Source: a virus (lineage: Duplodnaviria; Caudoviricetes). From it: 30,212 bases of DNA. Numbering within the stretch: the first letter of the stretch is position 1; each line of letters starts with the position of its first letter. Location of the stretch: IMG/VR virus record IMGVR_UViG_3300033067_001183, positions 1 through 30,212 of that record; one strand, written 5' to 3'. The position numbers and the translations under genes are program-made. The notes below the pieces were generated by a model that did not search any database, was not told the origin of the DNA, and saw only the letters and a program-made list of their open reading frames with translations. Shown in pieces: positions 2,116 through 28,652 of the stretch.

Positions 2116-3951
2116 ATGGATTACACAAAAAAGGTCGCCGAGTTAGTTCGCAAGTCAGAGGACAATTATACTACTGGCACAACTAAGATTTCAAAGTATG
2201 TAGAGTTCTCGCAATACGAAAACATCGAACGCATACTTGCTTACATTAACTCAAAGCATATCTCAGGAGATACAGACGCTCTTGATAGAGAAAAGCCATT
2301 TTTTAACATTGTAAATGCTGCTCGTAACCTTTGGTATCGTGCAACCGATATAGACAGAAAAGACATCAGAATTAAATCGACTAAGTTTTCTAATGTCCTT
2401 TTTTCATTTATAGCAACACTTAAATTGCAGGAGTGGATGCGCAAAAACAACTTCGGACAATTCTTAAATGAATGGGGAAGAGACCTCGCAACATTCGGTT
2501 CATCTCCAATCAAAGCCGTTGACACAGATGAAAAATTACACTTGGAAGTTGTGTCGTGGACTAACCTCATCTCAGATGTAATTAACTTTGCAGCCAATCC
2601 TAAAATTCAAAAGTTTGATTTTGCAGAGAGTGAATTGCTACAACATCCTCTTTACTACAAAGACCAAGTGAAGTCTTTGCTAGGTTCTAAAAGCACAAGA
2701 AAAACAGCTGACAAACAAAATGTAGACCAAAAGGATGACTTCTATGAAGTTTACGAAGTAAATGGGTATTTCCCAGAGTCATGGATTTCAGGAAAAGAGG
2801 AGGACGATGATATTTATTCATACCAAATGCATGTTATTTCTTATTACTTGAATGAAAATGATGAGTACGAAGACCTCTGCCTTTACAAAGGTGTTAGAGA
2901 AGATGATCCTTTCACACTCACTCACTTGATTAAAGAAAATGGTAGAGAGCAATCAATCGGAGCAGTAGAGCATTTGTTTGACGCTCAATGGATGCAAAAC
3001 CATACTGTGAAGGCAATGAAAGACCAACTAGACCTTTCATCAAAGCTAATATTCCAAACAGCAGATGGAAACCTAATCGGACAGAATGTTTTGTCAGCAA
3101 TGGAAACAGGAGACATCTTAATCCACGCTCCAAACTCTCCACTTACAATGGTAAACAATGTGTCGCATGACATCGGAGCATTAAAAACTCTGGGTGAGCT
3201 ATTCTATTTGCAAGGCAACAAGACTGTGGGTGCAACTGAAGCCATCACCGGAGACAATCTAAACTCAAATGTTCCTCTAGGTTCTTTTGAAATCGCAAAC
3301 AAAGAGTCTCATGGCCTATTTGAAATCATGGTGGAAAACAAAGGCCTACAACTTGCGCAAATCATTAAAAAGCATGTTATCCCTCGTATTAAAAAAGAAC
3401 TTGATACAAGTGAGGAAATTGCTGAAATCTTATCAGCAGAGCATATTGAAACTATTGATTCTCTTTACATTCCAAACGAGGCAATCCGTAGATACAACAA
3501 AAAGGCAGCTGAAATCATATTTGATGGAGGTGTAGCGCCAGAATTCAATCCTGCAGAGGCTGAAAAAGAAATCAGGGATGAGATAGCGCCATTGCTAAAT
3601 CAACGCTTTATAAAACCTTCAGAAATTGACTCAGTAAAATGGAAAGATATTTTGAAAGACATCGAATGGGAAGTTGAAGTTGACATCACAAATGAAGGCT
3701 CAGACAGAAGAGTTGTATTGCAAACACTTAACACACTATTGCAAACAATCGTTTCAAATCCTGCAATCTTACAAGATCCAAATGGTAAAATGCTATTTAG
3801 TAAAATCCTAGAGGAAACTGGAGTAATATCATCTGTTCAACTACAAAACACTAAACAAAAATCCCCATCACCTATTCCCCAAGCGAGTGGTGGGTCGCCA
3901 AAATCGGTGGGGGAATTATTAAATAAAGTTGCTGAAGCAACAACCCAATAA
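2116..3951 (+). CDS. Portal protein
   Basis: About 610 aa, directly after TerL, helical with a P22-like portal size and position. Start moved to the ATG at 2116 (MDYTKK), because the GTG at 2074 lies within the promoter. Confidence 0.8.
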   Translation: MDYTKKVAELVRKSEDNYTTGTTKISKYVEFSQYENIERILAYINSKHISGDTDALDREKPFFNIVNAARNLWYRATDIDRKDIRIKSTKFSNVLFSFIATLKLQEWMRKNNFGQFLNEWGRDLATFGSSPIKAVDTDEKLHLEVVSWTNLISDVINFAANPKIQKFDFAESELLQHPLYYKDQVKSLLGSKSTRKTADKQNVDQKDDFYEVYEVNGYFPESWISGKEEDDDIYSYQMHVISYYLNENDEYEDLCLYKGVREDDPFTLTHLIKENGREQSIGAVEHLFDAQWMQNHTVKAMKDQLDLSSKLIFQTADGNLIGQNVLSAMETGDILIHAPNSPLTMVNNVSHDIGALKTLGELFYLQGNKTVGATEAITGDNLNSNVPLGSFEIANKESHGLFEIMVENKGLQLAQIIKKHVIPRIKKELDTSEEIAEILSAEHIETIDSLYIPNEAIRRYNKKAAEIIFDGGVAPEFNPAEAEKEIRDEIAPLLNQRFIKPSEIDSVKWKDILKDIEWEVEVDITNEGSDRRVVLQTLNTLLQTIVSNPAILQDPNGKMLFSKILEETGVISSVQLQNTKQKSPSPIPQASGGSPKSVGELLNKVAEATTQ

Positions 3952-5083: not shown

Positions 5084-5088
5084 ATCGC

Positions 5089-5116
5089 TTGACAAAAAAT
5101 TATAAACTAATACACT
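5089..5116 (+). promoter_or_regulatory. Sigma70-type promoter for scaffold/capsid
   Basis: TTGACA-16 nt-TACACT, followed by a short hairpin GGAG-tagaagat-CTCC. Confidence 0.7.
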
Positions 5117-5156
5117 TAAAATTAACTGGAGTAGAAGATCTCCTAAAAAACATTCT

Positions 5157-5753
5157 ATGACAATCCCAAACGCCAAAGATGATGGCTCAAACATCGAAAA
5201 CGACAATGCTGAGTTCGTAAACAAAAACGCCGACGATCAAAACGATCAAGGTGGCTCAGAAGGAGCTGATGATGGAGAAGAAGAGATGACTCCTGAAAAC
5301 TTTAAAAAGTATAAAGAGTTAGCTCACAACTACAAAATCAGAGCCGAGAAAGCCGAAAGAGGAGGCAAAGATCCAAAAGATGAAGGTAAAAAGCCTAATC
5401 CTACTAAACCTAACGCCAAAACTGACGACTTTTCTACAAAGGATATGTATTCATTAATCAAGGCTGATGTTCCTGAAGAAGATTTTGAAAGAGTAGGCAA
5501 CTATGCAAAACTCAACAAAATATCTATCGCAGAGGCTTTGAAGGATGAAGACTTGCAAATTATCCTAAAACGACAAGCTGAAAAAAGGGAAACTGCAAGA
5601 GCCACTAATATGGGTCAACGCAGAACCGGAAATCAGAAGGTCAGCGATCAAAAACTTCTTGAGGATGCCTCAAAAGGTAATCTACCTGAAAACGAGGATG
5701 ACATCGAGAGGTTAGCGAAAGCAAGAATTGCAGCAAGAAAAGCAGGTAAGTAA
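5157..5753 (+). CDS. Head scaffolding protein
   Basis: Acidic disordered N-terminus, coiled coil (KIRAEKAE), basic C-terminus; immediately upstream of the major capsid gene. Confidence 0.75.
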   Translation: MTIPNAKDDGSNIENDNAEFVNKNADDQNDQGGSEGADDGEEEMTPENFKKYKELAHNYKIRAEKAERGGKDPKDEGKKPNPTKPNAKTDDFSTKDMYSLIKADVPEEDFERVGNYAKLNKISIAEALKDEDLQIILKRQAEKRETARATNMGQRRTGNQKVSDQKLLEDASKGNLPENEDDIERLAKARIAARKAGK

Positions 5754-5799
5754 TGCTGATCGGTGGGTTAATAGATTAATAATTTAATTTTTAACCTTT

Positions 5800-6651
5800 A
5801 TGGCTAACACTATCAGTACTAAATCGTACAGAGATAAATATCGTCAATCAACTCTAGAACAAGCATTGAGAAACATGCTTGTGGCAGAAAAAATCTGTCA
5901 AGTTGATCGTTCTGATCTTAAAACATTACAAAATCCTTATGGTTCACAAGCAAGTGCAACTGTACAAGCAATAGCAGGTACTTATTCAGTAGCTGACTTT
6001 ACTCTTACAGACGACACACTGACTGTAAACAACGAGGTTATCGTTGCAGAACATGTCTACGACTTTGAAAGTTCTCTTTCACAGTTTGATTTGTTTGCAT
6101 CTAGATTTGATGAGCAAACTTACGCAGTTGCTCTTAAAATCGACAGATTCGTTCTTAACAACCTTTGTGAAGATGGAACAGGAGCTTACACTACTCCAGC
6201 AGGAGGGTTTACAGCTGCGAATGTTAACACTATCCTTTCAAACTTGGGTGGAAAATTAGCAGGTTACGCAGATGTATACAAGGGATTGTTCCTAGTAATC
6301 GAAAACACAGATGTACCGGGATTCATCGAAGCGCAAATGACAAGTGGATTCTCATTCGCAGACTCAGCGCTAAACAATGGATTCTTAACATCTCAAGCAG
6401 GTTTCGACATTTATGTTGTTAGAACAGGAACTTTTGCATCTGAAACATTGGGTACAACTACTTACACTAACTCTGGTCACAGAGTTGCAGGTGTTAAGGG
6501 TGTAGCTACTTACGCAGCTCCTCGTGGTCTTAAATTTGAAGAGAAACAAGTATCTGGTAAAACAGGTATGGAAACAGTAACATTTGGTTACATTGGTTTC
6601 AAACTATGGGCTCCTAAAACAGACCTAGTTATTGACATCACACTAGCCTAG
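5800..6651 (+). CDS. Major capsid protein (HK97 fold, P22-coat-like)
   Basis: Position after the scaffold. Motifs 'AVALKIDRFV' and terminal 'E.V.FG..G.KLW' are typical of P22-coat-like capsids. Confidence 0.8.
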   Translation: MANTISTKSYRDKYRQSTLEQALRNMLVAEKICQVDRSDLKTLQNPYGSQASATVQAIAGTYSVADFTLTDDTLTVNNEVIVAEHVYDFESSLSQFDLFASRFDEQTYAVALKIDRFVLNNLCEDGTGAYTTPAGGFTAANVNTILSNLGGKLAGYADVYKGLFLVIENTDVPGFIEAQMTSGFSFADSALNNGFLTSQAGFDIYVVRTGTFASETLGTTTYTNSGHRVAGVKGVATYAAPRGLKFEEKQVSGKTGMETVTFGYIGFKLWAPKTDLVIDITLA

Positions 6652-6671
6652 CCTTCGATTTATTACCAACC

Positions 6672-6754
6672 ACCTTTATAGGTGGGGGTGTGGTATATAT
6701 AAAATGTCATCCCACCGATACAAATTGTATGTACCACATCCCCACTTAAAAGGT
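6672..6754 (+). other. Long RNA hairpin downstream of the capsid gene, apical loop CCCACCG
   Basis: Imperfect inverted repeat of about 35 bp (6672-6707 with 6720-6754). Most mismatches in the core are G-U pairs on the + strand RNA. No U-tract follows. Confidence 0.75.
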
Positions 6755-7248: not shown

Positions 7249-7289
7249 TATCCTTATAGCTCATCAGCAATGGTGGGCTATCTAGGGTA
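7249..7289 (+). other. Intergenic stem-loop with GCAA (GNRA) tetraloop
   Basis: ATAGCTCATCA-GCAA-TGGTGGGCTAT with G-U pairs; possible processing, stability or weak termination element. Confidence 0.55.
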
Positions 7290-18468: not shown

Positions 18469-18529
18469 GTAAACTTATAAGTGAGAGTGGGTGCAGGGGT
18501 CTCGGTGGGACTCAGTCACTCTCTTACTT

Positions 18530-18682
18530 ATGAAAAAATATCAAGATTTGGCCGATGCTGTTTGGGTAAGACATCTCTCAAACAAAATCGCCTCAGGAAT
18601 TGCAGCCATTGTGTTCTTCATAAAAAAGAACATCCCAATGCTAGTAGTTTCCATGTTGTGTATTACACAAGTGTTCGCTTGA
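18530..18682 (+). CDS. 50-aa hydrophobic peptide with a structured leader
   Basis: MKKYQDLADAVWVRHLSNKIASGIAAIVFFIKKNIPMLVVSMLCITQVFA*. The ATG sits at the base of the hairpin at 18477-18531. Confidence 0.4.
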   Translation: MKKYQDLADAVWVRHLSNKIASGIAAIVFFIKKNIPMLVVSMLCITQVFA

Positions 18683-18712: not shown

Positions 18713-18850
18713 TGTAGGCAGTTATCGTCACTGTCTATAAATATTTTGTACTATGAAGTTCTAGTGAATTTTGTTTTCATATATTGTCACCAATCTGTCG
18801 TGGATTGGTGTCTGGCATGGTCGATTGCCAGACACGAGTCCATGATGTCC
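18713..18850 (+). ncRNA. Candidate structured small RNA
   Basis: ORF-free 140 nt after a promoter; hairpins at 18713-18739, 18788-18810 and 18797-18846 with G-U pairs. Confidence 0.45.
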
Positions 18851-22015: not shown

Positions 22016-23980
22016 TTATTTGATTGAATATCCTTGTAATCTTATTAATCCTTGCTGACTTGGAGTCTTGAATAGCAAGTCTCCTCTGCCAGTAAGTTTC
22101 TCAGCGCCAGACTCGTCAAGGATAATGCGACTGTCTGTTACTGAGGAAGTTGTCAAAGCAATCCTCGTAGGAAAGTTTGCTTTGATTAATCCTGTCACCA
22201 CATCAACTGAAGGCCTTTGTGTTGCTAGGATTATATGCACTCCGGCTGCTCTACCCATTGCTGCAAGTCTTGTGATTGAGATCTCTGCATTTATTGGTTC
22301 AGGTCGATCATTTTTCTTTTTAGACTTGTTTACTTTTGGTTGGAGCATAAAGTCTGCGTATTCATCAATTACCACTACAATGCGAGGCAGTTTTGTCTTT
22401 GCTTTGGCATTGTATTTTTCAATGTCTTTGGTTTTTGATTTTCTTAGCAATTCGTAGCGATTTTCTACCTCATTCATGATACTTTGTAGCTTTATAGAGG
22501 CTTCGTAGCCATCGGTAATGGTTTTATTCCCCTCCACATGGGCTAAATCTGCGAAACCTGCGAGTTCTACTCGCTTAGGGTCTATAAGTACCAGTTTGAG
22601 CTCTTTTGCGCTGTTTTGAGCCGAAATTGACTCCAATATCACATTCAGAAGCACACTCTTTCCTGATCCGGTGGTTCCGGCAATCAAAAGGTGTGGCATC
22701 TCAGCAATATCTCCGTAATAATCCTGTCCGTCAATCGTCTGTCCAATTGGAAACTTTAATGTTCCTTTGTTCAGGAGTTTTTTGTCAAAGTACGCTCTTG
22801 TTCTGTCTTTGTTTGGCACTTCAACTCCCACAAGGCTTGTACCTTGAATTGGAGCGAGAATGTTTACCTTTCCATCAGACTCAAGAGCTAACTCAATATC
22901 GTCTTTCATTTTTTTAACAGTCTGCATTTTAATACCGGCTGCAACTTTGAAACGATACTGAGTAACCTGTGCGCCAGTTTTCTTTTCGACTGGCATCACA
23001 GGAATTCCAAATTCGGCCAGTTTCAATTTAATTTTTTCCTCAGGGAGTAAGTTCTCATTTATTTTACTGTCAATTTTAGATGCAATAAACTTTTTTGAAA
23101 CTAACTGCACATCTTTCACTTTGTGCATAACTTCCACATCGGACAAGTCGGCATCCATCAAGCCTTGAGCGTAAATCAAACCGGACTCTTCGCCATCCAT
23201 TATGTCTGCAATGTTTGGTAAGAATACTGGGTCGTTTTTCAGGAACTTTGTGATGTCTTTTATAAGGTTGTAAAACAATGCAAAGTAAGGCTCGTGGTCA
23301 AATGGAATTGAGTAGTCTTGTATTTGAGAGTCGCCATTTTTATTATCTGATATTTTTGTTTGTCTGAAGAGCATTCTTTTTGCCTTGATACCTTTTGTTT
23401 CCCATAGCAAGTGATACATAAACATCGCTTGAATTATTTTTACATAATCTTCTGTTTCGTATGATGTAAATCTGTCAGAGAATTTGGTATCAATTATTTC
23501 TACATTTTCAGGGTTGTCATCCCACTGATGCACTAAGTCTGCTATCCCTGTGAATGCGATAGGCAATTCATCTCCGTAGATTGTTTTACACTTTGCTTCC
23601 CATTTTTCCTCGACTGATATTATTTTGTGGTACTTTGGTTCTTCCTTGAAATAGTTTCTGATTACTTTGTTGTAACCTTGTAGCATCTTTTCTCGGCTAT
23701 CCCATCGTGCTCCGTATTTAATAAATCCATCTGAGGACTCTACCAAATAATCCATTCCAACTTTTATTACATCCTCAATATCCTGTTCCATATCTGTATA
23801 ACGATATTCGAGCGCTTTGTGTGCTGCTTTGCCGATCATCATTGGTACTGTTGAAAGGCTATCATTATATTTTAGGATGTATTTCTTTTTAAACATCGCA
23901 GGGTTTCTAAGCAAGGTCACAACTGCCGAGTAGGACAATCGGTCGACCGGCATAAAAACATTATTCGTTTCCGAGTTCAT
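22016..23980 (-). CDS. PD-(D/E)XK exonuclease fused to an FtsK/SpoIIIE motor domain
   Basis: N-half: LSYS, GKAAHKALE, GIADLV, IIDTK, Q...Y. C-half: FtsK alpha domain (VGVEVPN), PHLLIAGTTGSGKS, IDPK, VIDEYAD, GRAAGVHIILATQRPS, GAEKL.GRGDLL. Confidence 0.9.
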   Translation of the reverse strand: MNSETNNVFMPVDRLSYSAVVTLLRNPAMFKKKYILKYNDSLSTVPMMIGKAAHKALEYRYTDMEQDIEDVIKVGMDYLVESSDGFIKYGARWDSREKMLQGYNKVIRNYFKEEPKYHKIISVEEKWEAKCKTIYGDELPIAFTGIADLVHQWDDNPENVEIIDTKFSDRFTSYETEDYVKIIQAMFMYHLLWETKGIKAKRMLFRQTKISDNKNGDSQIQDYSIPFDHEPYFALFYNLIKDITKFLKNDPVFLPNIADIMDGEESGLIYAQGLMDADLSDVEVMHKVKDVQLVSKKFIASKIDSKINENLLPEEKIKLKLAEFGIPVMPVEKKTGAQVTQYRFKVAAGIKMQTVKKMKDDIELALESDGKVNILAPIQGTSLVGVEVPNKDRTRAYFDKKLLNKGTLKFPIGQTIDGQDYYGDIAEMPHLLIAGTTGSGKSVLLNVILESISAQNSAKELKLVLIDPKRVELAGFADLAHVEGNKTITDGYEASIKLQSIMNEVENRYELLRKSKTKDIEKYNAKAKTKLPRIVVVIDEYADFMLQPKVNKSKKKNDRPEPINAEISITRLAAMGRAAGVHIILATQRPSVDVVTGLIKANFPTRIALTTSSVTDSRIILDESGAEKLTGRGDLLFKTPSQQGLIRLQGYSIK

Positions 23981-28565: not shown

Positions 28566-28652
28566 CCGATCAATTCCTGTCGTGTTTTTTTCTGATCCGT
28601 ACCTAGCCTTGCAAGTTAGGTACAGATCAGAGAATGCAAGGCAACTGACCGG
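28566..28652 (-). promoter_or_regulatory. Structured 5' leader of the initiator gene
   Basis: Outer 10-bp stem, inner 15-bp hairpin, and an 8-bp GCCTTGCA/TGCAAGGC alternative pairing. Confidence 0.65.

Follow-up and report, generated by a model that had tools for sequence, protein, structure and literature searches.

A covarying long-range RNA pairing between the capsid leader and a hairpin behind the capsid gene in a phage family, with a predicted role in translational control

Head genes, hosts and the hairpin behind the capsid gene

The window, by which is meant the whole stretch of 30,212 nucleotides that was analysed, is a linear virus record of estimated completeness 85%, and its head module comprises a terminase gene, a portal-sized gene, a scaffold-like gene and a capsid gene of the HK97 fold. 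The predicted model of the capsid protein resembles phage capsids and encapsulins in structure comparison (best E 2e-10), and the protein has 3161 homologues; no capsid relative was found among annotated phage records. Shine-Dalgarno (SD)-like words are rare, with one among the 22 window genes and none at the capsid start. The features around the capsid gene are these.

5088..5125, + strand: sigma70-like promoter, TTGACA-16-TACACT, by consensus match only
5157..5753, + strand: upstream gene, scaffold-like by position and acidic N-terminus; no family match
5759..5767, + strand: primary target ATCGGTGGG, its 5' part predicted single-stranded (a toehold), its 3' GGG the base of the lock
5765..5797, + strand: the 'lock', a predicted AU-rich leader hairpin of 14 bp that ends 2 nt before the capsid ATG (z -2.7)
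5800..6651, + strand: major capsid protein, HK97 fold, 283 aa (PHROG 267 major head protein, E 5e-8)
6670..6685, + strand: small competing hairpin within the key's 5' arm (fold z -2.5), with no U tract
6672..6754, + strand: the 'key', a long RNA hairpin 3' of the capsid stop, one per phage locus, from fold and covariance model
6710..6719, + strand: apex of the key, TCCCACCGAT, complementary to the targets; family consensus core CCACCGA

The promoter-like site would yield a single transcript carrying lock, capsid and key, although sigma70-like matches are no commoner in this region than in its shuffles (14 vs 15.2). It has CTTGAC...TACACTTAAAATTA in common with a second promoter-like site at 2057-2095, the two preceding the scaffold-like and portal-like genes, respectively, and the common string is a possible late-promoter signature. 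Data from RNA runs took the form of assembled contigs, without strand or ends, and came mostly from a relative less than 90% identical.

Relatives of the window are phage-sized contigs binned under many taxa, several of them Patescibacteria. Two are prophages at tRNA genes (G001:C22:15397-57230 and G002:C5:119688-160054), each with a tyrosine-recombinase gene and with flanking repeats of 48 bp and 39 bp, and the phage family is therefore at least partly temperate. The long contigs that bear them are titled Blastocatellia and Alphaproteobacteria, the second adjoining photosynthesis genes, and both prophages are SD-poor and of lower GC. Elsewhere in the window the - strand encodes, at 22016-23980 and beside a RecT gene, an FtsK-like motor that carries a fused PD-(D/E)XK nuclease domain.

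A sequence-only reading of this DNA had described, behind the capsid stop, a hairpin of about 35 bp that was compatible with G-U pairing on the mRNA strand and lacked a U-tract, and all of the sequences that it listed are found where it put them. The hairpin folds with 36 bp, including 4 G-U pairs, at -47.1 kcal/mol (z -8.8) on the + strand, as against -34.8 kcal/mol (z -3.0) for the same region on the - strand, and no intrinsic terminator was called at 6670-6754. The tip carries CCCACCGAU, the complement of ATCGGTGGG. The ten nucleotides assigned to the apex do lie there, but in the energy model only CCACC (6712-6716) is unpaired, the flanking 4 nt forming a short apical helix. Among related phages the stems run to about 22-36 bp and mostly begin 6-17 nt past the capsid stop, and their structure is conserved while their sequence is not. 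Isolated non-Watson-Crick oppositions in these stems are G-U in 136 cases vs A-C in 11, and the element is therefore RNA on the mRNA strand; the + strand also folds better in 71 of 81 relatives. With a covariance model the hairpin was recovered once each from 60 of 100 sources, on the strand of the capsid gene, and a single weak match fell on the opposite strand. Among 151 Patescibacteria genomes the key model R1 matched in two, once in a phage contig and once at a short hairpin within an ORF, and a many-copy, REP-like host repeat was not found there by this consensus-biased model under strict filters. Comparison with Rfam, which the sequence-only reading had proposed, gave no match at E <= 1 in the window and none at gathering score in four related loci.

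The competing hairpin at 6670-6685 also folds as had been suggested. Self-folding of the 5' arm of the key (z < -2) recurs in 66 of 81 relatives, against 10 of 81 for the 3' arm; the small hairpin starts a median of 7 nt after the capsid stop, and at least 5 U within 8 nt past it were present in 6 of 81. It is likely to be a co-transcriptional folding intermediate, or a 3' guard left after processing. Two further long hairpins of the window, at 18794-18849 near the strand switch and at 28585-28640 beside the replication gene, score weakly with the key model (E 0.12 and 0.56, respectively), and at locus L142 a 12-nt unit is tandemly repeated in about five copies between the capsid stop and the key.

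Complementarity between the loop and the capsid leader

Within the window ATCGGTGGG occurs at 3903 and at 5759, where it ends 32 nt upstream of the capsid ATG, and as its complement at 6711. The expectation is 0.09 copies and none of 100 shuffles reached three, in keeping with the earlier estimate of well under one chance copy. Relatives extend this observation. Of 185 capsid loci fetched from viral, metagenome and genome contigs, 98 were kept once duplicates, loci with short flanks or no clear ATG, and the copy from the window itself had been set aside, and the loop core was found in 86 of these 98. An exact 7-nt complement lay within 70 nt before the locus's own ATG in 56 of the 86 (permutation mean 12.7, maximum 24 in 20,000), rising to 67 when one G-U pair was allowed. 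Where the loop departs from the consensus the leader follows it, in that 42 of 56 such loci had the complement of their own loop and only 5 had the consensus target. An independent second set supplied 32 new usable loci, and 23 of the 31 with a hairpin had a match of at least 7 nt (7.8 expected).

With the apex picked by structure alone, the pooled set of 130 distinct related capsid loci had a hairpin in 113, and in 88 of these the tip had a Watson-Crick match of at least 7 nt in its own leader; 25 hairpin loci lacked a 7-nt match and 17 loci lacked an adjacent hairpin. A control window further upstream in the same genomes matched in 1 of 108, and controls taken from the stem arms in 6 of 113 and 1 of 113. 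When one locus was kept per 80%-identity cluster, 50 of 60 were matched (18.2 expected, maximum 31), as were 26 of the 34 clusters with non-consensus loops (4.5 expected). Matched loop and target variants are found on separate branches of a tree that is a quick version with 27 of 94 forks open: TTCACCTATTT/AAATAGGTGAA, CCATCAG/CTGATGG, CCCGTCGA/TCGACGGG, CCCCAGCGTT/AACGCTGGGG and TTCCACATA/TATGTGGAA. Several pair types occur at each of loop positions 1 and 3-8, in a table that is anchored on the best match and so partly circular. RNAalifold predicted no pairs from a 72-sequence MAFFT alignment because the stem registers differ, and alignment-free tests were therefore used; in a 20-sequence subset with a shared register 19 of 19 pairs covary, a figure partly fitted by the choice of subset.

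The most distant locus with the element, L185, is 41% identical; among more distant capsids, one query gave a partial match and one alignment was too diverged. A scan of viral contigs for the 15-nt loop pattern gave 78 loci, with the word at a hairpin tip in eight, of which two are one capsid flank of the same family in two contigs and six have no leader target, so that the scan gave no evidence of spread to other capsid families.

That a long-range RNA pairing exists between the key loop and the capsid leader is, on this evidence, hardly in doubt. A different origin for the repeated words can nevertheless be imagined, namely that they are DNA sites for a phage protein, present as inverted operator copies, or an SD-like signal for host 16S rRNA. 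Copies do recur before several late genes and in promoter-proximal leaders, and the C's at loop positions 1, 2 and 5 are nearly invariant. Against a DNA site stand the placement of the inverted copy at a hairpin tip, the excess of G-U over A-C in the stem, and the finding that imperfect matches between loop and target are rescued by G-U in 11 loci (7 of them from one clade) and by A-C in 2. As for the ribosome, the targets vary by phage, and the 16S ends read from 13 Patescibacteria (out of the best-scoring 14 of 43 genomes) all end in ACCUCCUUU, one common anti-SD, and contain no CCACCG. We regard this reading as extremely improbable and as largely refuted. The sequence-only reading had proposed that covariation between loop and upstream motif be sought in relatives, conservation without it pointing to a protein-binding site on the DNA. 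The two are co-conserved with compensatory changes, and these, together with the RNA nature of the element on the mRNA strand, mean that the pairing withstands that test and that a DNA site is unlikely.

Host 16S pairing was rejected as a candidate, the target matching none of those 13 ends, which also answers the comparison with 16S rRNA that had been suggested earlier; no 16S gene was found in the five bins with relatives. The SD-less host of the earlier reading stays a supposition: the phage genes are indeed SD-poor, but the 16S ends read retain an anti-SD and the two prophages reside in contigs titled Blastocatellia and Alphaproteobacteria.

A predicted start-hiding leader hairpin and its proposed opening

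The capsid leader itself is predicted to fold into a hairpin that hides the start and that has the 3' half of the target as its base, a feature absent from the sequence-only reading. In the window this lock is closed by the GGG of the target pairing with (T)CC at 5795-5797, and the ATCG(GT) half is left free. By our own criterion the lock geometry is present in 42 of 67 relatives, and a simple lock is absent in 25. The two arms match within phages, at -7.5 vs -5.1 kcal/mol for permuted arms (n=61). The computed cost of opening positions -12 to +4 has a median of 6.4 kcal/mol at the capsid vs 3.2 at 591 other genes, and at the capsid it is 3.4 kcal/mol with the target occupied vs 6.2 with a neighbouring segment occupied (p 2e-7); in the window it falls from 11.1 to 7.2 kcal/mol when the target is occupied, these energies being model values that ignore the geometry of a kissing loop spanning about 950 nt. 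The computed gain is below 1 kcal/mol in 22 of 67 loci, and the strengths of lock and duplex show no correlation (rho -0.10, p 0.40).

Targets in relatives end a median of 26 nt upstream of the ATG, mostly beyond the usual footprint of the ribosome. Their core begins a median of 5 nt past the stop of the scaffold-like gene (n=65 relatives), the spacing also found in the window. The start codon itself is often weak: among 161 distinct genes the aligned capsid start is not ATG in 28, with GTG, TTG, ATA, ATC or ACG instead, as compared with 4 of 118 for the portal gene and 3 of 94, 9 of 112 and 3 of 27 for other control genes, several of these non-ATG control starts looking like misplaced alignment starts. 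The codons are ATC at L011 and L155, ACG at L076 and L226, and ATA at L034, L064, L069, L183 and L217; about 19 other capsid genes start at GTG or TTG, and several of the non-ATG loci have extra sequence between lock and start. Ten leaders (L017, L025, L038, L046, L047, L106, L113, L147, L170 and L171), mostly from the clade with the CCACCGG loop, have one more conserved word, (TA)GTCG, within a hairpin that separates the target from the ATG.

We consider it probable, with the folding models as guide, that the key loop pairs with the word in the capsid leader, opens the start-hiding hairpin and so switches capsid translation on. Evident from the sequences and their folds are the complementarity, the covariation, the RNA strand bias, the sharing of nucleotides between the target and the base of the lock, and the position of the target behind the upstream stop; translation control is the likeliest role of the pairing. 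The leader would first shut by folding during its synthesis. The target would then be exposed either by the ribosome that finishes the scaffold-like gene, which would melt the lock when it terminates so close to the target, or by the single-stranded toehold alone. Once the key had been transcribed, its C-rich loop would take the G-rich base of the lock in a duplex of 7-13 bp, leaving the AU-rich start region unpaired. As the loop lies behind the gene that it would regulate, activation would wait for the full transcript, and as the key can take the lock base only once it has been transcribed, capsid would be made only from full-length late mRNA and after the scaffold.

A further reading, that of a 3' enhancer as in the sequence-only reading, has the pairing loop the mRNA, so that ribosomes finishing on the capsid gene, or else a factor that binds the stem, are brought back to the start. 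Stems that are long, structurally conserved and rooted close behind the stop would suit such a loop, as would genes without an SD and the nine or ten relatives that seem to start on ATA, ATC or ACG. It is nonetheless decidedly unlikely, because at five loci (L005, L009, L035, L148 and L181) another gene precedes the key, which is displaced by 550-690 nt and yet remains complementary, because stem sequence is not conserved, and because the lock is left unexplained.

The pairing might also govern processing or stability of the mRNA, a nuclease site in the leader being masked or exposed and the stem serving as a substrate of RNase III, whose cleavage would leave the small hairpin as a 3' guard. 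Precedent comes from hbs of B. subtilis, where, according to the abstract, a 14-bp pairing of 5'- and 3'-UTR modulates cleavage by RNase Y (PMC5737220), and stems of the observed length with a conserved alternative 5' hairpin fit a processing site. As the primary function we find this highly doubtful, for neither the closed start region specific to the capsid and its relief by pairing nor the targets at several start sites are accounted for; it may coexist with lock-and-key activation as a side effect.

Further targets, known systems and exceptional loci

Three additional sites in the window could be addressed by the same loop.

3903..3911, + strand: secondary target within the final codons of the portal-like gene, the following ATG being 45 nt away
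7270..7277, + strand: putative weak target ATGGTGGG, with 7 bp of which one is G-U, in the arm of a hairpin upstream of ATG 7313, from sequence and fold
18502..18510, + strand: candidate target TCGGTGGGA in the loop of a long hairpin burying ATG 18530, from sequence and fold

The first and third had been listed in the sequence-only reading for their distances of 45 and 19 nt from the following ATG, and both distances are right; but the first lies in the 3' end of the portal-like ORF and not in a gap, and shows no computed opening gain, and the third proves to be the loop of a hairpin that buries the start codon. Exact cognate sites occur before the equivalent of the ATG-7313 gene in 3 of 20 genomes, and no relatives were found for the gene neighbouring the third site. 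That strong hairpin, at 18476-18532, covers the ATG of a 50-aa ORF (18530-18682) past the lysis genes, which has a hydrophobic C-terminal half and no Pfam match.

Among relatives, a cognate site lies before the portal gene in 13 of 58 loci (5.0 expected) and before the post-portal gene in 13 of 63 (4.2 expected), following each phage's loop variant; the terminase gene (0 of 35) and the scaffold gene (0 of 63) have none. The computed opening gain at 20 secondary sites is 1.1 vs 0.8 for the control. In a genome-wide scan of 20 phage records, in two of which (G157 and G163) the key was mis-picked, 12 sites preceded starts on the same strand and 5 did so on the opposite strand, while 93 lay elsewhere; little enrichment is seen outside the head module. 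The capsid leader is therefore the core target and the others are optional; it is likely from these counts that the same key also addresses the leaders of portal and other head genes in a minority of phages, in cis on a long transcript or in trans.

At the portal gene the majority of targets end 9-19 nt upstream of the ATG, and pairing at that distance usually represses. The key might accordingly act in the opposite sense, blocking a standby site or the start region and providing negative feedback as full-length mRNA accumulates; on a structured start without an SD the ribosome would need the single-stranded toehold, of which the pairing would deprive it. The icaR mRNA of S. aureus, in the abstract of its description, is repressed by pairing of its 3'UTR with the SD in its 5'UTR (PMC3868564). 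We hold repression to be unlikely, since at the capsid the predicted duplex would break up an inhibitory hairpin where its pairing is strongest, with a fall in the computed opening cost, and since several portal targets, including those of G160 and G173, also lie in loops of small hairpins that hide the start; it may hold at the portal even if the capsid is activated. In icaR and hbs, as here, both ends of one mRNA pair, and whether they do so in cis or in trans is open for icaR too; the icaR pairing covers the SD, whereas the phage capsid has none and its target ends well upstream. Neither abstract (PMC3868564, PMC5737220) describes a long hairpin with a covarying loop placed to open a start-hiding stem.

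Activation by the key admits a bolder extension, rather doubtful to our minds, in which a private and reprogrammable RNA address code replaces the SD: one 3' guide hairpin per genome would open capsid, portal and neck leaders in cis and in trans, set their order and ratio, and place ribosomes for AUA, AUC or ACG starts. If true, this would amount to a toehold switch of natural origin, triggered by the tail of the gene itself.

Among worked-out systems the nearest is the rep switch of ColIb-P9 (IncI-alpha) and related plasmids. As described in PMC4705826, a ribosome at the leader stop exposes the word CGCC; a distant loop then pairs with it and keeps the start from closing, and the design includes a weak GUG start. 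The phage element resembles it in having a start region hidden in a hairpin (here by computation only), an upstream ORF that ends beside the pairing word, a distal stem-loop whose loop complements a short GC-rich word in the region that is locked, and weak non-AUG start codons. It differs in that the activating loop of ColIb-P9 lies upstream in the same leader, whereas here it lies about 950 nt downstream, past the stop of the regulated gene, once per locus; in that ColIb-P9 has an SD and an antisense RNA that competes for the loop, whereas the phage capsid start has no SD; and in that the phage has a complete protein gene as its upstream ORF, a word that differs from phage to phage, and extra targets before other genes. 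A phage RNA with an activating role is IsrK of prophage Gifsy-1, whose binding is reported to turn a translationally inactive phage transcript active (PMC4825925); IsrK is a 5'-derived isoform that acts in trans on its own read-through RNA, whereas the element described here follows a structural gene and has the leaders of late genes as its targets.

The 3' cap-independent translation enhancers of plant RNA viruses bind eukaryotic initiation factors. The phage element, unlike them, has no evident factor-binding module and a stem sequence free to vary. The likeness, drawn in the sequence-only reading, is that in such viruses, BYDV among them, a 3' structure pairs over long range with the 5' leader and favours initiation. 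Enhancers of this kind are mentioned in PMC3868564. The earlier assignment of the phage pairing to translation control stands as the likeliest role, with extra targets before other head genes, but the plant-virus enhancer is a weaker analogue than the rep pseudoknot because the phage target is built into a start-hiding hairpin.

Literature searches returned no description of a capsid key and target, and none is given in the parts of PMC6733600, PMC10690425, PMC10746230 and PMC4288162 that were available. The loop and target word is absent from six supplement files of the catalogue of candidate viral RNAs in PMC10690425; files 1, 2 and 4 lay outside the search, so that the hairpin alone may be listed there. 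The element thus appears from sequence comparison to be real and uncatalogued, a strongly covarying long-range RNA element whose predicted function is loop-mediated translational control.

Its phylogenetic support is unusually strong, extending over more than 100 phages. To our knowledge, known 5'-3' pairings in bacterial mRNA are few. Those of icaR and hbs, from their abstracts, repress or alter decay, whereas the geometry of the phage element predicts activation. It would allow a direct test of how phage genes without an SD reach high output, and it bears on how the order of scaffold before capsid and the ratios of head proteins are set; its many natural variants of loop and target already form orthogonal pairs that could serve in compensatory tests and in the design of riboregulators in laboratory strains.

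A few loci depart from the usual arrangement. At L165, L248 and L179 an ORF lies between scaffold and capsid genes and the capsid leader has no target, and the key persists; L248 retains a target directly past the scaffold stop. At L012 the key was looked for and was not found. Where an ORF intervenes before the key, an HNH match was obtained for L035 and L209 only. More generally, ORFs of about 150-210 aa are repeatedly inserted in the lock or just before the key, at L005, L034, L035, L148, L165, L179, L181, L209 and L248.
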